Source of the DNA: an uncultured Phycisphaerales bacterium
GTDB taxonomy: Bacteria; Planctomycetota; Phycisphaerae; SM23-33
NCBI GenBank assembly: GCA_965369385.1
Contig: CBDUQP010000002.1
Location: 783-64,782 of the forward strand
Reading direction: 5' to 3'
DNA length: 64,000 bases
Numbering within the stretch: the stretch's first letter is position 1; each line of letters opens with the position of its first letter. A model generated the notes under the pieces. It saw only the letters and a program-made list of their open reading frames with translations. It made no database searches and was not told the origin of the DNA. Of the stretch, positions 1 to 45,077 are shown in pieces. The position numbers and the translations under genes are program-made.

Positions 1-597
1 GCCTATGACTACCGCGTCGATCCTGCACCGCCTGGGGCGAAAAACGGCGGAATTGCCACCCGCGAACATCGGGGTGACAGCTTTGCCGCGCGGCCTGCGA
101 GCGGTACTTTGATTCGCCACTCGTTCACCGGTGAAACTGGAGTCACTGGAACTCGCCACCTTCGTACTGCGAAGATACCTTCGCGTTACAAACAAATGAA
201 TAAGTGCAGTCACTATGCGAACGATGTCGTCACGACTCGCTTGCGTGCCACCAATTTCAGGTTTTCGGACACAATCCATAGCCCCCATCGCAAGGGCCTT
301 GACGGTGATATCGGAAGATGTCTCATTCTCGCGGCTGGTCATAATGACTCCGACATCAGGATATTCGCGCCGCAGTACCTTCAAAGTGGCAAGCCCATCA
401 TTATCAGGCATTTCAATATCCAGCAGCACAACATCAACAGCGAGTCGCGTCATCTTGTCCAAGGCAATCCTGCCCGTAGCGGCTGAGCCTACCACGGTGG
501 CGTCCTGGATTCGCTCAACTGTCTCGACGACGAGTCGCCTGCATGCGACCGCACTATCGACCACGAGAACATTGGAAATAGTCGTGTGTGAATCCAG
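1..597 (-). CDS. cheB: Chemotaxis response regulator protein-glutamate methylesterase CheB. Partial: the C-terminal methylesterase domain runs off the window 5' edge.
   Basis: Manual reverse-strand translation gives ...ISNVLVVDSAVACRRLVVETVERIQDATVVGSAATGRIALDKMTRLAVDVVLLDIEMPDNDGL..., a CheB/CheY-type receiver with the phospho-acceptor Asp in VVLLDIEMP. An in-frame TAG lies at 613-615. There is no ATG/GTG/TTG before the beta-1 strand, so the start is non-canonical (CTG 595-597 or ATT 577-579) or unresolved. The plus-strand ORFs 109-486 and 215-616 are antisense artefacts. Confidence 0.7.
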   Translation of the reverse strand, partial: MDSHTTISNVLVVDSAVACRRLVVETVERIQDATVVGSAATGRIALDKMTRLAVDVVLLDIEMPDNDGLATLKVLRREYPDVGVIMTSRENETSSDITVKALAMGAMDCVRKPEIGGTQASRDDIVRIVTALIHLFVTRRYLRSTKVASSSDSSFTGERVANQSTARRPRGKAVTPMFAGGNSAVFRPRRCRIDAVVIG

Positions 598-654
598 TTT
601 TCTTACTCCGGCCTAAATAAGGGCATATCAAACATCAGAGGATCAACTTTCCTC

Positions 655-1149
655 TCAGACCAACGTTACCGCTTGCTTCTTCAGCAGTTCTTCCACATTC
701 AGTATCAAGAGAAGTTCACTGTCCAGTTTTACAACTCCAGAAATATACTTCCCGATTGTCTCACATAAGTTTGCGGGAGAGGATTCTATCTGTGACTCAT
801 CAACATCCACAACGTCGCCAATATCATCCACGAGGAACCCGGCAACATCATCACTCGTCTTCAAAGCATGCAAATCGTCACCCCTTATCCGTCGAATAGA
901 AACAAGCTCGTCTTCGCTTTTCAGAATAATATTGTGGCTATCACCGGATATAGTCCGCTCGCCAAACCCCATCCGTACGCCAAGGTCAACAATCGTCACA
1001 ATGTGCCCCCGCAGATTGATGAGTCCGCGAACAAACCCAGGCGAATGCTGAACACGGGTAATCTCAGTCTGGCGATTGATTTCCCGAACAAGCATGACAT
1101 CCACGCCAAACAGTTGACTGTCAAGCCTGAAAGTGGCGAACTGTATCAT
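655..1149 (-). CDS. cheW: Chemotaxis coupling protein CheW
   Basis: 164-aa single CheW-like domain (..FGVDVMLVREINRQTEITRVQHSPGFVRGLINLRGHIVTIVDL..), immediately downstream of cheA on the same strand. Confidence 0.85.
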   Translation of the reverse strand: MIQFATFRLDSQLFGVDVMLVREINRQTEITRVQHSPGFVRGLINLRGHIVTIVDLGVRMGFGERTISGDSHNIILKSEDELVSIRRIRGDDLHALKTSDDVAGFLVDDIGDVVDVDESQIESSPANLCETIGKYISGVVKLDSELLLILNVEELLKKQAVTLV

Positions 1150-3912
1150 CTATCCTGCCTCCCTGAATGAACATACCTTGTCAACAAACTCGACCGGATC
1201 AAGGAAGATTGTCAGATGCTCGTTCACAATCGCAGTGCCTTGCATGCCCGGACCACTGACCGTGCCCTCATCAAGAGAAACATCCACGTCCAATGCATCC
1301 ACTATCCCGGCAGCTATGATACCGGCTTTGGCTTGCATCTCACTGCCGTAGCCACTGTGCTTGGGAATAATCACGAACAATTCCTGCTGCTCGTGGCCGA
1401 TTCTCTCAAGCGAAAGATGGTCTTCGAGGCGTATAAGCGGAAGACCTGAACCCCTGTAATGGATGAATTCTCGATCGCCAATTCTCTTGATATCCGAAGC
1501 GGATATGCGTTCCAGACGCAGCACCTTGTCCTGCGGAATGGCCAAGTACTCACCGGGAGCATTCTTCAACAAAATGACGGATCGACGATTGGCGGAAGAT
1601 GCGGCGTTCAGACCGGCAAGTCTTTCCGTGTAACGCTTTACCTCGGAATCCCTATCAGTGAAGCTCAGAGCAGCCCTATCCGCCAGGCCGACAGCGTCAA
1701 TAATCATCACTACCCTACCGTCACCCATGATCGTTGACCCCGAGAAGCATCCGCTACCCTTGACGAGAGATGACAAGGCCTTGACCACAATTTCTTCACT
1801 ATCAAACAAACTGTCCACGATAACGCCAAACTTGTGGTTCCCTGACCTCAGCACCATGATGTTATAGTCACTCCGCCAACTTGCCCGCCGACCGTCTCCC
1901 TGGCGATGGGTGGTATGCCAGCATTCCTCCCCAGGCACAGGCAAATCATCGGAGCAAATATTTCCTGCTCGCCTGTCTACGATGCTCTCGCGGCGATCGC
2001 CAAACCCACCTTGCAAGCCGCTTTCCGCGTTCCTGTACGTCCGGGCCATGCCAAGAACATCCGACAACCGCACAAGCGGCAGGAGCATATCACGAATCCT
2101 TACGACACAGGCGCCATGAACGCTCTGTATGCAATTCTTCGCTTCTTTGGCACGTATGCATAGGAGCTCGACAATATCTTGTTGTGGGACAGCAAAACGC
2201 TGCCCCTCTGTGCCCACGATTAATGCCGGAACAATAGCCAAAGTCAGTGGAAGTCGCAGAAGCAGTGTTGTCCCCTTGTCAACTTGCGTGTCTATCTGAA
2301 TATGTCCACCAAGCTTCTCGATATTGTTGCGAACCACATCCATGCCAACACCTCTTCCCGAAATGTCGGTTACCTTTTCAGCCATGGAGAAACCAGGAGC
2401 AAGAATAAGATTCACCGCCTCTTGATCACTCATCCCCACAGCATCCGCGTTGGTGACCAGTCCCATTTCTACTGCCTTCGCCAGCACTTTCCTGCTGTCA
2501 ATTCCCCTGCCATCATCGCTGATCGACACGTTCACCATCCCTGATTCGTGATAGGCACGAAGGTGAATCAGCCCGGTTCTCAGCTTGCCGCCTTTATGTC
2601 GCTGTTCAGGGGTTTCCAATGCGTGATCCGCACAATTACGAACAATATGCATAAGCGGATCGCAAAGAAGCTCTATTATGCTCTTGTCCATCTCAACGTC
2701 TGAACCTTCGATCCGAAGCTCGATCTCTTTACCAAGCTTACGAGCAAGATCACGGACGACGCGAGAGAAACGCCCGAATACCAAACCTATCGGCTGCATT
2801 CGGGTCTGCATCACGCTCTCCTGCAACTCGCTGGTAACGTGATCTATATCCTGCAGTATCTCCCCCAAACCACTTATGGAATCACCATGTCCGTCAAGTG
2901 CGCTCATCAAACGATTTCGCCCCAGCACAAGCTCCCCCACAGTGTTCATCAGACGAGTGAGCAAATCCACACGCACACGCAACGTCTCCCCCCCCGACGG
3001 TTTGGCGCCATTGCTGGCGTCATTGCCACCAACATCGAGCGGTCCGGCGACATTAGATTCAGCGACACTTGCTCCACGCGTTGAATGGGCCTGGCGAGAC
3101 TCGGCAATACGTTGCTTCATCGCCGACACGTCTATCTCTTCGATACGGTCGGCCGGCAACGCTATCCCTTCGGGCAGGAACTTCGGTTCAAGCACTGATG
3201 CGAAAACCAACGAGAATGCGGTATCAGAATCTTGTGTCAGATCGAGTTTATCAGCCCGGTCGGGCAAAGCGATGACCTGTCCGACCGATGACATTGTCTT
3301 GAGCATCGCCTCAAGATCCATGCCTCGACTCAACAGGTCTTCCCCAATATTCAGGTTTACCCTGTAAACAAACATTCCCCGTTCTACCAGGGCCCTAACC
3401 CGCTTGTCGCCAAGATCACACTCGGCGTGCATTGCTTCCCTTTCCGGCATGGTTTCATCAACAGTTTTGGATACTCGCCGGGAAGGCAAAACGGGCAATC
3501 CAGATTGCGGAAGATCATCCCGATGAGTATTTTCGGAGAGAATCCGCTTGAACTCATCTATCTCTTCCTCACAGGGGACGCTGTCACTGGCATGGATGTC
3601 GTCTATCATCGCGCGAAGTTTGTCGACCCCTCGCAGCAAGACATCCATTATTTCCCGAGTGATGGCGAATCGCCCGTTACGGATAGGCACAAAAACGCTT
3701 TCCATGCAATGGCTGAGATTCTTGAGGGACTCAAATGAAAATGACCCCGCCGAACCCTTTATGCTGTGAATCGCCCTGAAGACACTGTTCAGTGTATCCG
3801 GCGAAATATTCTCCGGGTCCTTCTCCATCTTGAGCAGCTCTGGTTCGATAGCGTCAAGATTCTCGCGACTCTCTGTGACCAGATCGTTCAGCAGTTCTTC
3901 GGCAAAACCCAC
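1150..3912 (-). CDS. cheA: Chemotaxis histidine kinase CheA with two C-terminal CheW-like domains
   Basis: N-terminal HPt domain with phospho-His motif RAIHSIKGSAGSF, a dimerisation domain, a HATPase_c domain (..GRGVGMDVVRNNIEKLGGHIQIDTQVDKGTTLLLRLPLTLAI) and then two consecutive CheW-like domains. 920 aa. Confidence 0.9.
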   Translation of the reverse strand: MGFAEELLNDLVTESRENLDAIEPELLKMEKDPENISPDTLNSVFRAIHSIKGSAGSFSFESLKNLSHCMESVFVPIRNGRFAITREIMDVLLRGVDKLRAMIDDIHASDSVPCEEEIDEFKRILSENTHRDDLPQSGLPVLPSRRVSKTVDETMPEREAMHAECDLGDKRVRALVERGMFVYRVNLNIGEDLLSRGMDLEAMLKTMSSVGQVIALPDRADKLDLTQDSDTAFSLVFASVLEPKFLPEGIALPADRIEEIDVSAMKQRIAESRQAHSTRGASVAESNVAGPLDVGGNDASNGAKPSGGETLRVRVDLLTRLMNTVGELVLGRNRLMSALDGHGDSISGLGEILQDIDHVTSELQESVMQTRMQPIGLVFGRFSRVVRDLARKLGKEIELRIEGSDVEMDKSIIELLCDPLMHIVRNCADHALETPEQRHKGGKLRTGLIHLRAYHESGMVNVSISDDGRGIDSRKVLAKAVEMGLVTNADAVGMSDQEAVNLILAPGFSMAEKVTDISGRGVGMDVVRNNIEKLGGHIQIDTQVDKGTTLLLRLPLTLAIVPALIVGTEGQRFAVPQQDIVELLCIRAKEAKNCIQSVHGACVVRIRDMLLPLVRLSDVLGMARTYRNAESGLQGGFGDRRESIVDRRAGNICSDDLPVPGEECWHTTHRQGDGRRASWRSDYNIMVLRSGNHKFGVIVDSLFDSEEIVVKALSSLVKGSGCFSGSTIMGDGRVVMIIDAVGLADRAALSFTDRDSEVKRYTERLAGLNAASSANRRSVILLKNAPGEYLAIPQDKVLRLERISASDIKRIGDREFIHYRGSGLPLIRLEDHLSLERIGHEQQELFVIIPKHSGYGSEMQAKAGIIAAGIVDALDVDVSLDEGTVSGPGMQGTAIVNEHLTIFLDPVEFVDKVCSFREAG

Positions 3913-4306: not shown

Positions 4307-5167
4307 ATGACAGAAACAATCGATAATCTCGAAGCCCTGATTCACACCCTGCCCGACTACCAGAACTGGGCATTTATCAGTGACGTTGACGATGCCCTCG
4401 CCACGGACTATCTGGCGAGCACCGAGGAACGACTGGAAGATATCGAAGCCAATGCGCTTGAGTGGGAATCGAATCCGGAGAACACCGAATTCCTCGAAGC
4501 CATTCTTCGCCAGTTACATACCATTAAGGGCGATGCGGGATTTGTCGGCCTGGGCGACCTTGGCAAGGTAGTACACTCCATAGAAACGTGCCTGGGCAAC
4601 ATTCCCAAAGGCCAGGCCCAAACAGGCAACCTTCTAATAGCCAAAGATTGGTTAAGCGAAGTGATGGCTTTCCTGCGTAATGGAAGCATCGGAACTTCTT
4701 TGGACGATTCCGGCAAACAATGCCAGACTCAGAACAATGATGCCGGTTGCAACGATACAATTACACCTGCGGCAAACCTGAGGATTCTCATCGCCGTCGA
4801 TGACTTCATCAGTCAACAGCTCGTTATGGAACTGTCGAGGCACCTCGGCGATTGTCACCTGACCGGCTGCGGAAAAAGCGGTGTGGACGCATTCCAGAAC
4901 GCCCTTGAGCAAGGCACACGCTATGATCTCGTCTGCCTCGTGGGTAATGCAGGCGAAATAAGCGATTCCCTCGCTGCTATGCGATCATGCGAGAGCACCC
5001 ATAATATCAGCTCAGACGATTGCGCCAAAGTGATCGTGCTTACCGGATTCGACGGCAAGCGACCAACTTCAGCCGAAAGCAACTCCAGATGCGAATCGTA
5101 TCTCCACAGCCCGATCATGCCGACTAATCTCACCAAAGCCATCAGAAACCTGGGATTAGTCGCATAA
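4307..5167 (+). CDS. HPt-domain protein fused to a degenerate (pseudo-)receiver domain
   Basis: N-terminus has an HPt motif (..FLEAILRQLHTIKGDAGFVGLGDLGKVVHSIE..). The C-terminus is receiver-like (LRILIAVDD...KVIVLTGFDG) but the conserved phospho-acceptor Asp position reads ...RYDLVCLVGN (no Asp), and the conserved Lys is also lost. Transcribed divergently from cheA. Confidence 0.6.
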   Translation: MTETIDNLEALIHTLPDYQNWAFISDVDDALATDYLASTEERLEDIEANALEWESNPENTEFLEAILRQLHTIKGDAGFVGLGDLGKVVHSIETCLGNIPKGQAQTGNLLIAKDWLSEVMAFLRNGSIGTSLDDSGKQCQTQNNDAGCNDTITPAANLRILIAVDDFISQQLVMELSRHLGDCHLTGCGKSGVDAFQNALEQGTRYDLVCLVGNAGEISDSLAAMRSCESTHNISSDDCAKVIVLTGFDGKRPTSAESNSRCESYLHSPIMPTNLTKAIRNLGLVA

Positions 5168-5663
5168 TTGCCGGCTGACTGAACGAATCCAGATGCGAAG
5201 GCGGCCCAATGTGCGTGCAGCACAAATCGTCGCTGAGTCGCACACGAAGCCCAATGTATTTGCAGAAACCGTATGTCCCCAGATGAATGCGATATCTGCC
5301 TGAAACACCCAACCGTAACGGCAGCTCAACCGGCTGCAACGGCCAGGATTTAGAATTATTCGCCCATAACCTCGGAGGTAAACCCAAACGACCAGGGCAC
5401 ATACGGCGGAGCCTTGCCTTCGAAAACCATTCTCACTACTTCTCGCGACGTCATATGTGTCTCCTTCGGGATTTCTCCGCTGCTATGCGTATCGCGAATG
5501 AATGTAACCTCCGCCGACTGAATAGCGAATACACGTATCGGTCAATGATATGGACTTTCTTGCCATTCCTGCTATTATTACTCCATATGGCAAGATGATG
5601 ATGAAGAGATGATTAGAAGACTCCTGACGAGCAAAAATGCGGCAGTAACCGAAGAAAAGACAA

Positions 5664-36424: not shown

Positions 36425-37191
36425 AGATACCAGGAGAGAACATGATACAGATAGACCTGTCAGGAAAGACCGCAGTAATCACCGGCGCAAGCCAGGGCCT
36501 GGGCGCAACGACGGCCCGCGTGCTGCACGAAGCCGGCGCTAACGTGGTAATCAACTACTTCGACGATGCCGAAGGTGCAAACAAGGCAAACGCGCAACAA
36601 CTCGCCGATTCGCTCGGTGATCGCGCTATGCCCATCGCTGCCGACGTTACAGACCTCCCCGCCGTCGAGGCAATGTTCCAGGCCGCTGTCGAGAAATTCG
36701 GCACTGTGGATATCGCCGTAAATAACGCTGGCATCGTCCGCGACCGCACCGCCAAGAAGATGTCCGAGCAGGACTGGCAGATGGTGATAGACACCAATCT
36801 CACCGGCGTTTTCCACGTCTGCAAGACGGCGGCAGGCACACTCGCCGAAGGCGGCCGGATAGTAAACCTGTCCTCAATCTCCGGCCAGATCGGTCTGTTC
36901 GGGCAGTGCAACTACGCTGCCGCCAAAGCGGGCGTAATGGGCCTGACGAAGGTCGTCGCCAAAGAAGTTTCCCGCCGAGGAATCACGGTGAACGCCGTTG
37001 CACCGGGCGTGGTGCTCACCGATATGGGCCTGTCGATTCCCGAAGCGGTTCGCGATGAAATGCTGAAGCTCGTCCCACTCGGCCGCTTTGGCGAGCCCCG
37101 TGAAATCTCCAACGTGATACTCTTCCTCTGCAGCGATCTGGCGTCCTACATGACCGGGCAGGTGCTGCACATAAACGGAGGTTGGATTTAA
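36367..37191 (+). CDS. SDR-family oxidoreductase (3-oxoacyl/acetoacetyl-CoA reductase-like)
   Basis: TGASQGLG cofactor motif, NNAG and YAAAK catalytic motifs. The likely start is MIQIDLSGK at 36442. Confidence 0.8.
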   Translation: MRQKASQVRVRIRPKKYQLKIPGENMIQIDLSGKTAVITGASQGLGATTARVLHEAGANVVINYFDDAEGANKANAQQLADSLGDRAMPIAADVTDLPAVEAMFQAAVEKFGTVDIAVNNAGIVRDRTAKKMSEQDWQMVIDTNLTGVFHVCKTAAGTLAEGGRIVNLSSISGQIGLFGQCNYAAAKAGVMGLTKVVAKEVSRRGITVNAVAPGVVLTDMGLSIPEAVRDEMLKLVPLGRFGEPREISNVILFLCSDLASYMTGQVLHINGGWI

Positions 37192-38741
37192 TGGCCGACC
37201 CACGCGACAGCAAGCTCTGCACCGCAGACCAAGCCGCAGCACTCGTTAAGGATGGCGACACGATAGCCTCTGGCGGATTCGTGGGCGCATGCCACCCCGA
37301 AGCGTTGTCGGCCGCCATCGAGCGAAGATTCCACAAAACCGGTCAGCCCCGGGATCTGACAGTGGCATACGCGGCCGGACAAGGCGACGGCAAGACTCGC
37401 GGCGCCAACCATTTTGCAGTTCCCGGACTGCTCAAACGCGTTATCGGCGGACACTGGGGACTGGCGCCCGCACTAGGCAAGATGGCGATAGAAGGCCAGA
37501 TCGAAGCATACAATTTCCCCCAGGGCGTTATATGCCAACTATTCCGCGACATCGCTGCCGGTCGCCCCGGATGCATCACTCACATAGGTCTCAATACTTT
37601 TGTGGATCCTGATATCGACGGCGGGCGGCTTAATTCCAACACGCCCGAAGACATGGTCGAGCGCGTTGAACTGGGCGGAAAGACGTGGCTGTGGTACAAG
37701 GCCTTCCCGATAACTATCGGCCTGATCCGCGCGACCGGCGCCGACCCTACCGGCAACATAATCATGAATCGCGAAGCCATCTTCGGAGAAGCGCTCGCGA
37801 TAGCGCAGGCCGTGCACAACTCAGGCGGAATTGTAATCGCCCAGGTCAGCGAACTGCTTGATCAGCCGATCGAGCCCCAACAGGTGATAGTGCCCGGCAT
37901 ACTGATCGACAGGATCGTGGTATCCGAGCCTCACGAGCACGAACAGACATTCGCCGAGGCGTACAATTGGCGATACTGTGCCTCGCAGCCGGCAGATGAA
38001 GCACCGGGGGGCCATCTGGAGCCGATGGAGCTGAATGAACGCAGGATCGTCTGCGCTCGCGCTTGCCAGGAAGTGCCCGAAAACGCGATTGCGAATCTCG
38101 GTATCGGCATGCCCGAAGGCATCGCCCGAATCGCCGCGGAGCAGGGTATTCTGAGCAAATTCACGCTGACGGTCGAAAGTGGACCGATTGGCGGAATACC
38201 GGCCGGCGGTATGAGCTTCGGAGCGTCCGTACACCCCGAAGCAGTGGTAGGCCAGCCAGAACAGTTCGACCTGTACGATGGCGGCGGCTTGGATTACGCA
38301 GCCCTCGGGGCCGCACAGATAGATGCACGCGGCAACGTGAACGTGTCAAAGTTCGGAACGCGCGTGCCGGGAATCGGCGGATTCGTCAATATCTCACAAA
38401 CTGCCAAACTGCTGGTTTTCTGCGGATCATTCACAGCCGGCGGTCTGAAGGTTGCAGTCGAAGGCGGCGAGTTGAAGATCATCCAGGAAGGCAAGGCACG
38501 TAAATTCGTCCAGACAGTCGAGCAAATATCATACAATGCTGATTACGCAATGCAGATCGGCCAGCAGGTGCTTTACGTAACCGAGCGTGCAGTGTTCACG
38601 CTGACGGCAGATGGATTGGAACTAACCGAAGTAGCCCCCGGCATAGATATCCAGACGCAGATTCTGGACTTGATGGACTTCAAGCCCATCATCAACAGCC
38701 CCACAACCATGGCCGCCAAGCTGTTCGCAGCCCCCAGCTAG
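37182..38741 (+). CDS. Acyl-CoA:acetate/3-ketoacid CoA-transferase, fused alpha/beta subunits (YdiF-like)
   Basis: 519 aa family I CoA-transferase with fused A and B halves. The likely start is ATG 37191 (MADPRDSK). Confidence 0.7.
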   Translation: MDLMADPRDSKLCTADQAAALVKDGDTIASGGFVGACHPEALSAAIERRFHKTGQPRDLTVAYAAGQGDGKTRGANHFAVPGLLKRVIGGHWGLAPALGKMAIEGQIEAYNFPQGVICQLFRDIAAGRPGCITHIGLNTFVDPDIDGGRLNSNTPEDMVERVELGGKTWLWYKAFPITIGLIRATGADPTGNIIMNREAIFGEALAIAQAVHNSGGIVIAQVSELLDQPIEPQQVIVPGILIDRIVVSEPHEHEQTFAEAYNWRYCASQPADEAPGGHLEPMELNERRIVCARACQEVPENAIANLGIGMPEGIARIAAEQGILSKFTLTVESGPIGGIPAGGMSFGASVHPEAVVGQPEQFDLYDGGGLDYAALGAAQIDARGNVNVSKFGTRVPGIGGFVNISQTAKLLVFCGSFTAGGLKVAVEGGELKIIQEGKARKFVQTVEQISYNADYAMQIGQQVLYVTERAVFTLTADGLELTEVAPGIDIQTQILDLMDFKPIINSPTTMAAKLFAAPS

Positions 38742-38754
38742 TGTTCAGCGATAG

Positions 38755-38937
38755 CACGCATAAGCGAAAATGGGAAGCGAAAATGGGGACTGTACCGATT
38801 CTGGGACTGTCCCCACTTTCGCGTCGTGCGCTATCTGACGCAGCATACGCTATCGACCGCAAAAGCGGGGACAGTCCCAACATCGGGACAGTCCCCGTTT
38901 TTGCTCGTCTTTGATCCGTCCCCGCCACATGTGGAGA
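38755..38937. repeat. REP/BIME-like structured repeat, copy A (two inverted ~46-bp arms, each built from GGGGAC(A/T)GTCCCC palindromes)
   Basis: Arm 1 is GCGAAAATGGGGACTGTACCGATTCTGGGACTGTCCCCACTTTCGCG at 38777-38823. Arm 2 is its near reverse complement at 38859-38904. Sits immediately after the CoA-transferase stop. Near-identical copies at 41200-41390, 42646-42756 and partially at 49641-49734. Confidence 0.8.
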
Positions 38938-39003: not shown

Positions 39004-39744
39004 CTACCTGCGGTTCCTGCGGAACATCGCCAGTGCGCCGAGGGCCAGCAAACTCAGCGTAGCCGGTTCGGGAACGGCAGCATACTCGACATGACCCGTC
39101 ACCGTAATACCTTCGGCAAAGCCATCGGTGAAACCAGCTATATCGAGTCCGAAAGTACGAGTCGAAGACGTGCCCGCAACAGCAACATCAGCTGGATTCC
39201 AGCTAACAAGATCATAATCATTTACCAGTGCCCAAGACAGACCGCTGCCGGTCAGGGCAACTGCTGCCGACGTGCCGGTATTGCCTGCCGTGGTCTCCGC
39301 CCAGTTAGCATAATCATCACCAGCAACCTGGTAAACGGTGGCGTGGCGGCCGGCATAGACGCTGATACTGTCAATCACGAGCGTCATCGGGGCAGCGCCT
39401 TGCCCTGTCAGTCCACCGGTATACTCCGCAGCAATCGTAACGCCGAAGCTGATCCTGCCGGAGTAATTGCCGGTAGTTCCATCAGCAAGTATCCCGGACC
39501 CAAATGTTGGCCCAGTACTCGACCAGAAGGCACCTACCGGACCTGGGGCAATAGTGACAGTCACATCAAAATCACCCGTTACCCCGGTGTTGGTAGCGGA
39601 CGTTTCGGTGTCACCCCAACCAGCTTCAGTACCGCACCCATACGCCAGCGAAAACGTGTTGCTGGTCAGAACTTGGGCCGACGCCCCGGTCGTCACCGCG
39701 ACCAAAACAGCCAACGCTGCTACAATTCCTAGAGTTCTCATCAT
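39004..39744 (-). CDS. PEP-CTERM domain exported protein
   Basis: Signal peptide MMRTLGIVAALAVLVAVTTGASAQ and C-terminal VPEPATLSLLALGALAMFRRNRR sorting signal. Gly/Thr-rich body. Confidence 0.8.
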   Translation of the reverse strand: MMRTLGIVAALAVLVAVTTGASAQVLTSNTFSLAYGCGTEAGWGDTETSATNTGVTGDFDVTVTIAPGPVGAFWSSTGPTFGSGILADGTTGNYSGRISFGVTIAAEYTGGLTGQGAAPMTLVIDSISVYAGRHATVYQVAGDDYANWAETTAGNTGTSAAVALTGSGLSWALVNDYDLVSWNPADVAVAGTSSTRTFGLDIAGFTDGFAEGITVTGHVEYAAVPEPATLSLLALGALAMFRRNRR

Positions 39745-40043: not shown

Positions 40044-41195
40044 GTGGTAGTAGATTGCATTACTGAAGAAGCGAATTGCAGCACTGATGTACGGCGAATT
40101 CATAGGATTATGAGAAGAATACCGGCACAAACCGACCTTGCAAACGACCTTGCCAATGCCCTGCTACAGGACGTTCGTGACAGGGGATTGCAAGAGGGCG
40201 ACCGCTATTACACCACGGAAGAAGCCGGCCATAAGTTCTCCGTTTGCAAAGAAACGGCAAGAAAGGCCATGAAAATACTGGCCGGACGCGACGTGCTGGT
40301 GCGCCTCCGGCGGAGGGGAACTTTCGTGGGCTCGATGGCCGCAGCCAGACCGCAGCCCAAAGTCGCCCGAAGGCGGCTTCTCGTGCTGACACCGCCTGTC
40401 GTTTGCAGTTCCCCACAACTCGAATTCAGTCAGATTCCGCATTTTCTGGATCAGGCGATGAACAACATCTTCATCCAGAGCCATATCCTCCCTCTGGATG
40501 CGGACGTATCGATTATTCGGGAAATGGTCGACAACGTCAGAAACACCGGCCATCTTGACGGGATAGTCAGCGGTTCCCGCACGCGCGAGGTGCATGATTA
40601 TATGACCTCACTTGATGTCCCGGCGGTGGTTCTGGGCACGCTGGATTCGGGACAGACCGACCTGTCATCGCTGGACCTGGATTACAATCAAGCCGGTAGA
40701 CTGCTGGCGGAATATGTGATTGGACTGGGACACACCCACGTAATCGCCCAGTTGGCCAATAATTTTCGCGGGGATCATCACTTCGCCGACAGCATCGCCG
40801 ACGTTATGTCGGCAGCTCATTTACCGCCGAGTTCCCTGAGAGTAAGAACCTTCTGCGGTGATCTTGAAACCGTCCGTGCCAATTTCAGAGACCTGCTGAG
40901 CAATAACAACCGCCCGACAGCCATCATAACGCGCGGCCGGGCGCTGGCGGATACTGCGGCGGCGGCAGCCGATGACGTGGGGCTTTGCATCAGCAAGGAT
41001 ATCGAGATCGTCTGGTCGGGAAGCGCACTGAAAGTCGAAGAGTATTCCCCTTACGTCAACGTCCAGTCAAAACTCGGCATGGACGAGATAGCGTCGATGG
41101 TAGCGAAGATGCTCGAAGACCAGAGAGAGGGCAGAGCGCTTGAGGAAAAACACGTCTTCATCCCCGCCGAACTGTGCATGCCCTCGGTAAATTAG
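40044..41195 (+). CDS. GntR-type HTH regulator with PBP-like effector domain
   Basis: wHTH (..YYTTEEAGHKFSVCKETARKAMKILAGRDVLVRLRRRGTFV..) followed by a LacI/PBP-like domain. The true start may be an internal Met (~40108). Confidence 0.6.
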   Translation: MVVDCITEEANCSTDVRRIHRIMRRIPAQTDLANDLANALLQDVRDRGLQEGDRYYTTEEAGHKFSVCKETARKAMKILAGRDVLVRLRRRGTFVGSMAAARPQPKVARRRLLVLTPPVVCSSPQLEFSQIPHFLDQAMNNIFIQSHILPLDADVSIIREMVDNVRNTGHLDGIVSGSRTREVHDYMTSLDVPAVVLGTLDSGQTDLSSLDLDYNQAGRLLAEYVIGLGHTHVIAQLANNFRGDHHFADSIADVMSAAHLPPSSLRVRTFCGDLETVRANFRDLLSNNNRPTAIITRGRALADTAAAAADDVGLCISKDIEIVWSGSALKVEEYSPYVNVQSKLGMDEIASMVAKMLEDQREGRALEEKHVFIPAELCMPSVN

Positions 41196-41199
41196 GCCC

Positions 41200-41390
41200 C
41201 TCGCGGTGGCTCGCATGTGCGAAAATGGGAAGCGAAAATGGGGACTGTACCGATTCTGGGACTGTCCCCACTTTCGCGTCATACGCTATCTGACGCAACA
41301 TAGGTTATCGACCGCAAAAACGGGGACAGTCCCAGAATCGGTACAGTCCCCGTTTTTGCTCGTCTTTGATCCGTCCCCGCCACATGTGGC
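41200..41390. repeat. REP/BIME-like structured repeat, copy B (most complete copy)
   Basis: TCGCGGTGGCTCGCATGTGCG-AAAATGGGAAGCGAAAATGGGGACTGTACCGATTCTGGGACTGTCCCCACTTTCGCG...GCAAAAACGGGGACAGTCCCAGAATCGGTACAGTCCCCGTTTTTGC-TCGTCTTTGATCCGTCCCCGCCACATGTGGC. Starts 5 bp after the regulator stop codon. Confidence 0.8.
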
Positions 41391-41583
41391 ATTTTTATGT
41401 TCAAACCTGTGCCAAAGCATGGAAAAATGATCCCTCAGAGCGCAAGATATGCATCGTTCAGATGGTTTGGCACAATGGGCCATGCGAATCCGTCTGGCAG
41501 ACCGGCAACCGGTGACAGAGCGTCGCCGAAGACCCGGAAAAATCCCGGACAAGCTACCAGGCCCAGATACAGGATAGAATAAC

Positions 41584-42603
41584 GTGACTACTCCTCTTCG
41601 TTTTGCGTTCGTTGGTTTCAGACATGGACACATCATGGCCCTGCTGGCGGCCGTCAAGGAACACGCCTGCTGCGAGCTGGTTGCCTGCTGCGAGGAAGAT
41701 GTTGAAAACTCGCTCGTGAATGACAACATCGAAATAACCCACACCGATTACGACAGGATGCTCGCCGAAGTTGACTGCGATGTGATAGCCGTGGGCGACT
41801 ACTACGAAAAGCGCGGCGCGATCATTATCAGTGCACTGAAAGCAGGCAAGCACGTGATCGCAGACAAACCGATCTGCACAACGCTTGATGAACTGGCCAC
41901 GATAGAGAACCTCTCCAAAGCGAAACAGCTTTCGGTCGGCTGCCAGCTTGACCTCCGCGGCGTGGGCTGGTGCCGCACCATGCGCACCATGGTCAACGAA
42001 GGCAAAATCGGCGAAGTTCACACCATCACATTCTCCGGCCAGCATCCCCTGGCTGTGGGCGAGCGTCCCGACTGGTACTTCCAGGACAATTGCCACGGCG
42101 GAACCATCAACGATATCGCCATCCACGGTATTGACCTGATACCCTGGATGACCGGACGAAAGATTGTGGAAGTGGTGGCAGCACGCGGCTGGAATGCACG
42201 ATGCAAAGCGAACAAGAGCTTCCAGGACGGCGCTCAACTGATGCTGCGTCTGGATAACGATGGCGGTGTGCTGGCAGATGTATCGTACCTGAAGCCCGAA
42301 AAATGCACTGCGAACCTCCAGCAGTACTGGCGTTTCACCGTCCACGGCAGCGGTGGCATGATGGAAGGTTACTATGGATGTGACTCAATCGAGTACGTGA
42401 GCATGGAAGATGAAGGCGTCACAACGATCCCGTGCGAACCTGACGCCGTCGCAGCCTACCTCAACGATTTCCTCAAGGAAATAGCAGGCGAAACCCCAGA
42501 CGCTATCGATCTGACAACCGAGCAGGTGATAGAGTCGGCGAAGATCACGCTGCTGACGCAGAAGGCAGCCGATGAAGGCTGCTGCAACTTGTCTTGCAAG
42601 TAA
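41584..42603 (+). CDS. Gfo/Idh/MocA-family oxidoreductase
   Basis: Rossmann N-terminus (FAFVGFRHGHI..), EKP-like ADKPICT motif. 339 aa. Confidence 0.75.
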   Translation: MTTPLRFAFVGFRHGHIMALLAAVKEHACCELVACCEEDVENSLVNDNIEITHTDYDRMLAEVDCDVIAVGDYYEKRGAIIISALKAGKHVIADKPICTTLDELATIENLSKAKQLSVGCQLDLRGVGWCRTMRTMVNEGKIGEVHTITFSGQHPLAVGERPDWYFQDNCHGGTINDIAIHGIDLIPWMTGRKIVEVVAARGWNARCKANKSFQDGAQLMLRLDNDGGVLADVSYLKPEKCTANLQQYWRFTVHGSGGMMEGYYGCDSIEYVSMEDEGVTTIPCEPDAVAAYLNDFLKEIAGETPDAIDLTTEQVIESAKITLLTQKAADEGCCNLSCK

Positions 42604-42645
42604 CGCGGATGACACGTCAGCGCGACAAGCGGTGACGCACAATCG

Positions 42646-42756
42646 AGCGAAAATGGGGACTGTCCCGTCGTTGGGGACTGTCCCCACTTTCGCGGCGTAC
42701 GCTATCTACCGCAAAAGCGGGGACAGTCCCAGAATCGGTACAGTCCCCGTTTTTGC
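42646..42756. repeat. REP/BIME-like structured repeat, copy C (shorter spacer, variant arm 1)
   Basis: GCGAAAATGGGGACTGTCCCGTCGTTGGGGACTGTCCCCACTTTCGCG...GCAAAAGCGGGGACAGTCCCAGAATCGGTACAGTCCCCGTTTTTGC. The spacer is shortened, consistent with a deletion between the GCTATC direct repeats. Lies after the oxidoreductase stop. Confidence 0.8.
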
Positions 42757-42974
42757 TGCCTGACAACGGCACCTCCACTTCTAATCCGGGAATACTACAA
42801 TTCTTCAATATCCACTATTCTCTGTTCCTCGCGGGCAACATCGACCAGAAAACCTACGAGATGCCCGTAGATGGAATCTTCCAGGAAGGTAGCCGAAATC
42901 GATGGTGCCTGGCCGCGAATGACCTGCATGAAATCATTCACCACGATGGTGTTCCGCTGAAGCGATGTGAAAAA

Positions 42975-43538: not shown

Positions 43539-45077
43539 TCACAGCTTTCGCCAAGCGCGGGCGAGTTTCTTTAGGTCCTTCATGGGCAGCTTGTCGGCCT
43601 TCTTGCCGTAATGCACGAAATGCTCGGCGTAGAACAGGCACGGAACGCCCAGCTCGCTGCTGCGGAGGGTGTAGTCCAGCCATTTGTCGTATTCATCGCT
43701 GATCCAGTCGTCGGTATCGATCAGGGCCGCGGGCAGAGTCGCCCTGGAAAGCTCAGCGCGGAGCTTCATCCCGTCAAACACATCGCAGCCGGTGAAGATG
43801 GTATCGTGCAGACGAACCATATCCAGCGTGTCATAAAAATAGGGATGCACCGTACTGCTGGTGACCAGGGCGTCGGCCTTGGCGCACTTGGCGGCGGCGT
43901 AGATATCCTTCTGGTGCAGATAGAGCAGTTCCATGCCCCACCTATCAGCGGCAACTTTCATCTTGGGCAACTTGGGCGCAGGATTCTTTGCGGATTTCCT
44001 GGGCGGCTTCACAAAGAACGGGCTACCGAGCACAGAACATCCGCGAACGCGATGCTCACAGGGAACGTACTGCAGTTGGTCTATCTTGAAACCGTCGGCA
44101 TTGTAGCATCCCTTATCGGGCGAGATGAGCTTATGCACCTGGGCCTTCACAAAACACCGATAGGCGGGGTTGCTGGGGTCGGCCACAAGTTTGGTCTTGC
44201 CCGAATGCACGCACCACTCATCCGGCAGGCCCTCGCAGAACCACGTGGGAATCCACAACAGAACGCGACGTCCCTTGTCGTGCTGGCGATCAATGAAGCC
44301 TCGCAGGTCCGGCCAGCGAGTATATAGCGGGTCCCAAACACCACCAAGCGACCATCCGGCGTCGATGGTTACCGTGCCGATAGGCACCTCGGCCTGCTCG
44401 AGTCGCGCCAGCCAGCGTTCGTACAACCCCTGCGTGCAGTAATTATTCGCACGTTGCTCGTCGCCGGGACCTTCTAGTGCCAGTGACATCGCCACCTGAT
44501 CGCCCCATCCGCAATAGTTCGGCCGACACCACCAGTCAGGCGCATCGGCACTCTTGCGATATGCGGCGGGATATGCCTTCGTCAGCCCGCGTGTGAGCAG
44601 TTCCATGGGCGTCTCGCCATCGCGAATATCCACCAGTAGCACGCTCACATGCTTCGCCACGCGCGATGGCGTGCTGTGACCTTCCAGATCGATTCGGACT
44701 TCAACACCACTCTTGCTCGCTACGAACTCGGCGAGATTCCACAAATGCCATCCGCAATCCGCCTTCACGCACACAAGCGTCTTGTTGCAGTCACCTTCGG
44801 CGACAATGGCAACGGGGTTTGGCGTGAGCTTGGCGCAGGCTTCTGGCGTATCGTAGGTGCCGGTCCGTATGGTCTTCGGCAGACGATACGACTCGGTGCG
44901 GTGGGTCTCGGTGGGAACCGGGCACCACGCTCGCTTCGGCACAAAGCCCAGCATTTCGGGCGTTATGATGGCGGATATATGCGATTTACCGGAAGCTTTG
45001 AAGTCAATTCGCCGAGTCTTCATCAGGCACGTCCTCTCTGCAAGAGTGTCACGAGCCCGAGATTGTACGCACGCCAA
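43539..45077 (-). CDS. TIM-barrel glycoside hydrolase (GH27/GH31/GH36-clan-like)
   Basis: ..VTIDAGWSLGG.., ..ADGFKIDQLQY.. motifs typical of clan GH-D-like alpha-glycosidases. The likely start is MKTRRIDFK (~45023). No signal peptide. Confidence 0.5.
   Translation of the reverse strand: MACVQSRARDTLAERTCLMKTRRIDFKASGKSHISAIITPEMLGFVPKRAWCPVPTETHRTESYRLPKTIRTGTYDTPEACAKLTPNPVAIVAEGDCNKTLVCVKADCGWHLWNLAEFVASKSGVEVRIDLEGHSTPSRVAKHVSVLLVDIRDGETPMELLTRGLTKAYPAAYRKSADAPDWWCRPNYCGWGDQVAMSLALEGPGDEQRANNYCTQGLYERWLARLEQAEVPIGTVTIDAGWSLGGVWDPLYTRWPDLRGFIDRQHDKGRRVLLWIPTWFCEGLPDEWCVHSGKTKLVADPSNPAYRCFVKAQVHKLISPDKGCYNADGFKIDQLQYVPCEHRVRGCSVLGSPFFVKPPRKSAKNPAPKLPKMKVAADRWGMELLYLHQKDIYAAAKCAKADALVTSSTVHPYFYDTLDMVRLHDTIFTGCDVFDGMKLRAELSRATLPAALIDTDDWISDEYDKWLDYTLRSSELGVPCLFYAEHFVHYGKKADKLPMKDLKKLARAWRKL

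Follow-up and report, generated by a model that had tools for sequence, protein, structure and literature searches.

The window analyzed here, a stretch of 64,000 nucleotides from contig CBDUQP010000002.1 of an uncultured Phycisphaerales bacterium, contains three closely similar repeat elements, designated A, B, and C. They are hairpin-forming, non-coding sequences resembling REPINs (inverted doublets of repetitive extragenic palindromic, or REP, sequences) or terminal inverted repeat (TIR) units, that is, a type of selfish or domesticated DNA already known from bacteria. We interpret the three elements as non-autonomous REPIN-like doublets whose cognate IS200-like HUH/Y1 transposase, of the type of REP-associated tyrosine transposases (RAYTs) or TIRYTs, is encoded elsewhere in the genome; the probability of this reading is estimated at about 0.75. 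The analysis shows how the elements are built, that they have a strong potential to fold, that RAYT/TIRYT genes of other genomes have the module on either side, and that it is widely dispersed, with some copies in frame within genes.

Twelve dyads of the GGGAC(A/T)GTCCC type were found in the window, four in each element and none outside. When up to one mismatch was allowed, the 11-mer GGGACWGTCCC gave 12 matches against 0.93 expected, a number reached in 0 of 100 shuffled sequences, and GGGGACWGTCCCC gave eight matches against 0.11 expected. Neither an nhmmer profile of the six arms nor the pattern GGGGAC-N1-30-GTCCCC revealed an extra copy in the window. The preliminary description of this DNA had already reported about four dyads per repeat element, in agreement with this count, and the interval it gave, 38777-38904, corresponds to element A (38776-38905). 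The one-mismatch variants mentioned there were also found: A and B have GGGACTGTACC in their left arms, and B and C have GGTACAGTCCC in their right arms. Its two perfect tandem copies in one arm of C exist as 11-mers, in the left arm; as 13-mers, one of them is perfect and the other has one mismatch. In all left arms, the center base of both dyads is T, and in all right arms, it is A. The sequence GGGGACAG is present in at least one dyad of each arm, on the appropriate strand, and the other dyad starts with TGGGAC, CGGGAC, or CGGTAC. The 13-bp GGGGAC-W-GTCCCC is best seen as two GGGGWSAS-type ends placed head to head.

The two arms of each element are about 48 nt in length, inverted, and 85-90% complementary. 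The plan of an arm can be written as GCGAAAAY-GGGGACWGTMCC-6 or 7 nt-GGGACWGTCCCC-RYTTTYGCG, with the dyad centers 17-18 nt apart. Each arm is a near-palindrome by itself (RNA fold of -26 to -36 kcal/mol; -26.3 for the left and -36 for the right arm of element A alone), with a mismatch at each dyad center; as DNA, the 48-nt arms give -17 and -20 kcal/mol, with fixed internal mismatches. Whole elements fold into a hairpin of 39-48 bp, and the arms of B pair over 39 uninterrupted bp. The predicted RNA folds are -85.3 kcal/mol for A (z -12.7), -89.3 kcal/mol for B (z -14.5), and -73.2 kcal/mol for C (z -10.8). As DNA, the full elements give -38 to -52 kcal/mol (-48 kcal/mol for A), and for both RNA and DNA, the folding is far past that of the shuffled sequences. 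Since the left arms are T-centered and the right arms are A-centered, T and A are perfectly paired in the hairpin formed between the arms. In every copy, the left arm departs from the right arm at the same four fixed positions, which indicates that A, B, and C are copies of one master doublet. In our interpretation, the arm is the folding unit, and the doublet is the unit copied. According to the alignment, the spacers of A and B hold a 19-nt duplication, and the shorter spacer of C is due to the absence of one of these 19-nt repeats.

A variant with GTACC/GGTAC in place of GTCCC/GGGAC can be noted at four dyads of the window (38786-38796, 41241-41251, 41340-41350, and 42737-42747). The same variant is located at the same arm dyad in 18 of the 43 distinct two-dyad units from different phyla and gives a conserved mismatch in the arm hairpin; it could be a recognition or cleavage feature.

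The connection with transposases comes from relatives of the module in other genomes and metagenomes. Analysis of the genes neighboring the first 111 loci gave enrichment of generic families only (response regulators, ATP-binding cassette ATPases, short-chain dehydrogenases/reductases, and extracytoplasmic function sigma factors). Clustering of all open reading frames (ORFs) of 234 motif-selected loci revealed a single specific family, the IS200-like Y1 transposases, represented at five loci. This cluster came up only once the metagenome loci had been added, and the clustering step was unbiased. The Y1 transposases near the module match PF01797 with E-values of 1e-16 to 1e-18 and score 92.3 and 84.8 bits on the NCBIfam model NF047646 'REP-associated tyrosine transposase' (cut-off 80). 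At L209, L025, and L168, dyads are located 22-46 nt from both ends of the transposase gene, in inverted orientation.

In a check from the protein side, a profile search returned 6,743 homologues, and the flanking contexts were read for six of them. The gene of P0058, a protein 69% identical to the L209 enzyme, has GGGGACTGTCCC-ATTAAG-GGGGACTGTCCCC upstream and, 5 nt downstream, GGGGGACAGTCCCC-TTAAA-GGGACAGTCCCC. These flanks reproduce the arm(T,T)...arm(A,A) layout of the window, with the gene replacing the spacer. The window elements share this arrangement of arm, spacer, and arm, but with 14 or 34 nt of spacer in the place of the gene, and are therefore non-autonomous. Variants of the flanks with the same foot were found for distant homologues: GGGGACAGG...CCTGTCCCC (Elusimicrobia), GGGGACAGGCTAC-loop-GTAGCCTGTCCCC, GGGGACTGGCTCC...GGTGCCWGTCCCC (Geomobilimonas and another), and GGGGACGGTTC...GAACCGTCCCC. 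Inverted flanking of transposase genes was observed in L236/L237, L209, L025, L238-240, L241-243, and L245-252. The unit bounded by the GGGGACGGTTC...GAACCGTCCCC variant occurs, together with its gene, in two different neighborhoods (L241:2960-3700 vs. L242:2960-3700); the identity between them starts and stops at the repeats, and therefore the gene-bearing, autonomous unit appears mobile. The flanking of REP-associated tyrosine transposase genes by the dyad module in several unrelated contigs, and its fit to the published GGGGWSAS motif (PMC3733652), bear out the earlier suggestion that the dyads are RAYT recognition hairpins.

The enzymes found near the module are similar to published TIRYTs: the L209 enzyme is 52% identical to Gbem_2474 (E 8e-77), and P0058 is 42% identical to RB2408 of Rhodopirellula. 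They carry the NH[YF]H/NHVH, WQ/FQ, Y...NP, and SS signatures of subclass 2.1, to which they probably belong, judging from these signatures and from TIRYT similarity rather than from a phylogeny. One of the transposase loci, L236, contains 15 dyads in 6.4 kb, and around its repeat-flanked transposase there are two RVT_1 genes (1387-2151 and 4627-5511) and an antitoxin-like gene; it is a hotspot of mobile and defence-like genes.

The mechanism that we propose for these elements is as follows. The arms would fold on transiently single-stranded DNA, and the transposase would recognize the GGGGAC/GTCCCC foot, cut, and rejoin there. Over evolutionary time, new copies of the doublet would arise in this way, for the most part a short distance downstream of genes. 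After insertion, the elements would be co-transcribed with the upstream gene, and their GC-rich hairpins with A and T tracts would probably work as bidirectional terminators or 3' mRNA stabilizers, which is plausible as a secondary role. The recognition and cleavage of folded single-stranded DNA are suggested by analogy with IS200/IS605 and the E. coli TnpA-REP enzyme. Because the substrate of this enzyme family is a folded single-stranded hairpin, the dyads would be halves of stems, and the earlier picture of sites for a dimeric DNA-binding protein is probably wrong.

The dispersal of the module was studied in a collection of reference genomes (596 Gb) with a 20-mer composed of one dyad and its T-tract flank. 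This 20-mer was found at more than 111 loci, with several loci each in unrelated metagenome-assembled genomes (MAGs) of WOR-3 (UBA2258 and others), Bacillota SBF912LR0HQ0179, Usitatibacteraceae, Pirellulales, and Thermoguttaceae. Among the matches listed, a second dyad is present within 100 nt at 60 of the 111 loci. Many single matches resemble terminators with an A tract, a hairpin, and a T tract. The broad phylogenetic spread of the matches is not taken as proof of a universal motif, and single matches were down-weighted, since a GC palindrome with a T tract also picks up ordinary terminators. Two architectures recur: that of the window, at times with a variable GC hairpin between the two dyads, and a planctomycete type, in which the stem between two dyads is formed by ATTTTCGC...GCGAAAAT.

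In metagenomes, the pattern GGGGACTGTMCC-N6-7-GGGACTGTCCCC was found in more than 120 contigs. The dyads at these loci are invariant, and the spacer is variable (GCAC, GCAT, GAAC, and others). Of the neighboring dyad pairs, 152 are spaced at 17 or 18 nt, as in the window, with the gap of 6-7 nt set by the search pattern itself. At some loci, 4 to 8 or more dyads follow one another head to tail with a period of 17-19 nt, which is neither a multiple of 3 nor in helical phase. In viral contigs, the real core and two permuted palindromic cores gave one match each; the motif is not phage-enriched, and the comparison is uninformative. A full-text literature search with the motif string returned unrelated eukaryotic primers only. 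To our knowledge, the dyad does not fit the consensus of parS/Noc-type sites, CsoR-type operators, attC, CRISPR repeats, the ends of Tn3-family elements and Mu, or sequencing adapters.

A further feature of the module is its occurrence inside genes. The 30-nt cassette of two dyads is free of stop codons in all six frames. The base immediately after the cassette is A in 55% of cases, and C occupies the fifth and sixth positions in 47% and 57%, respectively. It was found in frame in a cysteine desulfurase (L117, ~5185-5214), where the Aminotran_5 match spans the insert, in a RimO-like enzyme (L208, ~5114), where the TRAM_2 match spans the insert, and in an isoleucyl-tRNA synthetase (IleRS; L139, 946-975), where it is located in the linker between two domains. 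It is also present in the C-terminal tails of secreted proteins, with the sequence ...VLFL-GDCPRTGTVPK-AVLLDISGRKV... (L118, L122, L193, and others). By eye, we take these tails to be sorting domains of the type IX secretion system; in the one tested (L193), Pfam gave no match to the tail region. The cassette encodes loops such as GDCPRTGTVP or GTVPERGLSP and is near-identical while the flanking coding DNA diverges. The RAYT gene of L025 itself carries AAAAGCAGGGACTGTCCCCGCTTTTGC in frame (L025:3399-3409), and about 30 residues are added between its N-terminal region and the HUH motif. In addition, ORF finding starts genes at the ATG within AAAATGGGGAC, giving the spurious N-termini 'MGTVPFF...' or 'MGTVPIW...' in L015 (~1150-1200) and L017 (~3694). 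These ORFs are presumably a GTPase-like protein (YchF-like by its N-terminus) and, by reading, a short-chain dehydrogenase. This ATG is a likely source of mis-annotated starts in MAGs.

These data suggest that one very short end module is common to many uncultured phyla and forms REPIN-like doublets, tandem arrays, and in-frame inserts in housekeeping genes. The core was seen in MAGs labeled WOR-3, Hydrogenedentota, Planctomycetota, Bacillota, Paceibacterota, Usitatibacteraceae, Nitrospirota, Spirochaetia, Armatimonadota, and others. Tentatively, and with a little less than an even chance of being right, GGGGAC-W-GTCCCC with its GCGAAAAY flank can be regarded as the core of a pan-bacterial repeat superfamily mobilized by TIRYT/subclass 2.1/group 1 transposases. 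As the cassette lacks stops in all six frames, it would also colonize essential genes in frame (cysteine desulfurase, IleRS, RimO, and secretion-signal domains) and even the transposase gene. This transposase group is the largest RAYT group and has been reported without REP-like partners (PMC6006769), and the GGGGWSAS ends of TIRYT elements have hitherto been described from a few dozen cultured genomes. If the proposal is confirmed, the module would offer a simple conserved substrate for studying DNA recognition by this group. In metagenomes, it would also serve to flag misassembly driven by repeats and wrongly called gene starts (spurious 'MGTVP...' N-termini). Of the threads of this analysis, the broader occurrence of the core module is the most interesting.

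The positions of the elements, of neighboring genes, and of related loci elsewhere are given in Table 1.

Table 1. Features of the window and of related loci elsewhere (L numbers).
Feature	Position	Strand	Remarks
Element A	38776-38905		left arm, 34-nt spacer, right arm; inverted repeat I5, 48-nt arms 85% complementary
Element A, left arm	38776-38823	+	AGCGAAAAT-GGGGACTGTACC-GATTCT-GGGACTGTCCCC-ACTTTCGCG; T-centered 11-mers 38786-38796, 38803-38813
Element A, right arm	38858-38905	+	CGCAAAAGC-GGGGACAGTCCC-AACATC-GGGACAGTCCCC-GTTTTTGCT; A-centered 11-mers 38868-38878, 38885-38895
Element A, dyads (11-mer starts)	38786, 38803, 38868, 38885		
Element B	41231-41360		same doublet, 34-nt spacer; inverted repeat I4, 90% complementary
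Element B, dyads (11-mer starts)	41241, 41258, 41323, 41340		
Element C	42646-42757		same doublet, 14-nt spacer; inverted repeats I14 and I16
Element C, dyads (11-mer starts)	42656, 42674, 42720, 42737		
Extended segment around A	38748-38934	+	direct repeat D1 (alignment)
Extended segment around B	41203-41389	+	second copy of direct repeat D1 (alignment)
CoA-transferase gene	37182-38741	+	element A begins 35 nt after stop
PEP-CTERM-anchored protein gene	39004-39744	-	adjoins element A, convergent
GntR + periplasmic-binding-domain regulator gene	40044-41195	+	element B begins 36 nt after stop
Gfo/Idh/MocA oxidoreductase gene	41584-42603	+	element C begins 43 nt after stop; element B ~270 nt upstream of gene
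First sizeable ORF past element C	43539-45077	-	~780 nt away; without Pfam match
Y1 transposase locus L209	gene 152-742		T,T dyads 106 and 123; A dyad 783
Y1 transposase locus L025 (Paceibacterota)	gene 2861-3589		A dyad 2839; T dyad 3623
Y1 transposase locus L168			four or five dyads on each side; gene frameshifted
Y1 transposase locus L055 (multi-copy Bacillota MAG)			GCAAAAATGGGGACAGTCCCCGTTTTTGC ~115 nt upstream of gene
Dyad arrays	L123:2303-2491; L194:~4691-4770; L168:361-403, 1225-1291, 2032-2148; L115:3689-3752		
GTACC/GGTAC variant outside the window	L005, L009, L018, L021-L023, L033, L037, L042, L043, L052, L054, L062, L076, L078, L103, L106		
Further in-frame cassette loci	L137, L138, L206, L213, L234		

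All three elements are extragenic, located 35-43 nt 3' of stop codons, and flanked by A/T tracts; two of them, A and C, are probably situated between convergent genes. The preliminary description had placed two hybrid regulators, each combining GntR with a periplasmic-binding protein (PBP), next to the repeats. There is only one, with GntR and LacI-type sugar-binding domains whose matches are both below the Pfam gathering scores, and the other neighbor is the Gfo/Idh/MocA oxidoreductase. The best named homologues of the latter are proteins from Lentisphaeria and Phycisphaerae MAGs, with at most 58% identity, which suggests that the host is probably an uncultured, sparsely sampled member of the PVC group.

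The segment common to A and B extends beyond the arms and comprises 187 nt with 93% identity. On the left side of the doublet it includes GCGAAAATGGGAA, a partial duplication; on the right side it includes TCGTCTTTGATCCGTCCCCGCCACATGTGG, and its right tail ends in the palindrome CCACATGTGG. An orthologous contig, L253 (88% protein identity), starts within the right end of element B (L253:1-45 vs. window 41345-41400); its assembly broke at this repeat, so the repeat elements explain assembly breaks here. In another part of this contig (L253:1265-1401 vs. window 42600-42700), the left arm of element C is present in decayed form at the corresponding site (GGGGAATGTCTC, GGAGACTATTCCC). As B and C are common to the window and L253, these insertions are older than the split of both lineages. 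Sharing of B and C with a relative would be as expected for vertically inherited REPIN-type repeats, and the elements apparently decay where they are not maintained.

Several points weigh against the interpretation of the elements as mobilized doublets. There are three copies only, all within 4 kb. A tblastn search revealed no RAYT/TIRYT gene in the 64-kb window, so the cognate enzyme of these copies is a presumed one. Binding, cleavage, and mobility are predicted for the elements. The 187 nt shared by A and B could reflect a local segmental duplication rather than transposition; alternatively, more than the doublet may have been copied. The elements lack the canonical REP foot GT[AG]G, and their feet read AATGGGGAC and AGCGGGGAC; without GTAG/GTGG, the elements are not canonical GTAG REPs. 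Finally, the cross-phylum signal of the 20-mer may partly be convergence: about 70 chance matches are estimated in 596 Gb, and together with convergent ordinary terminators, this makes isolated 20-mer matches weak evidence.

The alternative that survives best, although we consider it unlikely, is that the elements are strong bidirectional intrinsic terminators or mRNA-stabilizing hairpins that were duplicated locally and kept by selection on transcription, with no transposase involved. In favor of this are the location of all three shortly after stop codons, the probable placement of two of them between genes that converge, the long GC-rich stems, followed by GUUUUUGC on the + strand and AUUUUCGC on the - strand, and the terminator-like appearance of many single matches elsewhere. 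Like bidirectional intrinsic terminators, the elements combine an A tract, a GC-rich hairpin, and a T tract; unlike them, they are near-identical repeats with nested dyads, and the T tract is paired within the stem. A simple consensus terminator scan calls none of the three elements because the T tract itself is inside the stem; runs of U5 and U4 are present, within the extended stem. Moreover, neither a fourfold 13-mer nor fixed T,T and A,A centers would be needed for termination, and the flanking of transposase genes by the module, the tandem arrays, and the in-frame coding copies are left unexplained. The terminator reading is compatible with a secondary role of the elements.

Two further possibilities seem very improbable, to about the same degree. 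The first is a miniature inverted-repeat transposable element mobilized in trans by a conventional DDE transposase, with the arms serving as terminal inverted repeats of double-stranded DNA. The length of ~110-130 nt, the long terminal inverted repeats, and the lack of coding capacity are consistent with such an element. However, by eye, no target-site duplication was seen at the borders of A, B, and C, for which there is no empty site for comparison, and among the genes near the motif, the Y1 transposase is the only enriched family, with no enrichment of any DDE transposase. The second is a structured non-coding RNA, either a small RNA or a cis-regulatory element, acting as a transcript. The very stable predicted folds on both strands fit this, and the four fixed arm differences become two G-U pairs and two A-C mismatches in the transcript of each strand, with the strand determining which two. 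Nevertheless, no Rfam 15 family is matched at its gathering score, and the sub-threshold matches are miRNA-hairpin noise at least 47 bits below the gathering scores. The fold is equally good on the two strands, the copies have the character of near-identical repeats and not of homologues that diverged with covariation, and the in-frame and tandem-array copies elsewhere argue for a constraint at the DNA level.

The least probable alternative, scarcely credible in our opinion, is an array of operators for a dimeric regulator, as envisaged in the preliminary description. The regulator could be, for example, the adjacent GntR-PBP protein, which would then control the neighboring sugar and oxidoreductase genes. 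The perfect dyads in regular arrays and the position of element B beside a GntR-family gene and ~270 nt upstream of the Gfo/Idh/MocA gene speak for it, but hundreds of unrelated loci from many phyla carry the motif, it is associated with neither GntR genes nor any other gene family besides the transposase, the elements lie 3' of stop codons (A and C at 3' ends, probably between convergent genes), there is one such regulator only, the 17-18-nt spacing is not helical-phase, and the orthologous copy of C has decayed in L253 with the gene retained. The tempting operator reading of the sugar-regulator gene can be removed from the annotation of the window, and the elements can be annotated as repeats.

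Among the known repeat systems, the REP and REPIN sequences of E. coli and Pseudomonas (Bertels and Rainey 2011, PMC3116915; Nunvar 2010, PMC2817692) share several features with the doublets of the window. In both cases, short imperfect palindromes are paired as inverted doublets, which have a short spacer and can fold as a single long hairpin. Both kinds lie outside genes, mostly on their 3' side, and show long vertical persistence; the same units flank the cognate Y1 transposase gene, which for the present module holds in other organisms. The window elements are hairpin-forming imperfect palindromes arranged as inverted doublets with spacers of 34, 34, and 14 nt downstream of genes. They differ from REPs in that each unit is built from two copies of a smaller palindrome. 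REPs reach tens to hundreds of copies per genome; the 64 kb of the window contain three elements. REPs prefer sites downstream of genes, and intragenic REPs are also known (PMC3733652). The in-frame relatives of the module in conserved genes, which encode a short loop rich in Gly, Pro, Thr, and Ser, resemble such intragenic REPs and Rickettsia palindromic elements; the copies in the window, however, are all intergenic, and the inserted cassette is ~30 nt in length compared with 100-150 nt for the Rickettsia elements.

Other close counterparts are the repeats of TIRYTs. RAYT-like genes flanked by inverted repeats were named 'TIRYTs' or 'TIRtrons', and GGGGWSAS is common to many of the repeats (Di Nocera et al. 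2013, PMC3733652). In some genomes, the TIR repeats form moderately abundant, self-complementary families present as dimers or clusters (PMC3733652). TIRYTs correspond to subclass 2.1 of TnpA-Y1 and to the group 1 RAYTs of Bertels (Quentin et al. 2018, PMC6006769), with the signatures NHVH/NH[YF]H, W[EQ]/FQ, YIELNP/Y[IV]HLNP, and SS (PMC6006769). The GGGGACAG sequence of the window fits the published end motif, the published repeats are likewise self-complementary and grouped in dimers or clusters, and the enzymes beside the module elsewhere share 42-52% identity with Gbem_2474 and RB2408, two published TIRYTs. In the window, unlike in TIRYTs, the ends are fused into a 13-bp palindrome that is doubled within each arm, and there is no transposase between the arms. 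Quentin et al. did not find REP-like sequences for subclass 2.1 (PMC6006769), whereas the module described here is dispersed across many phyla.

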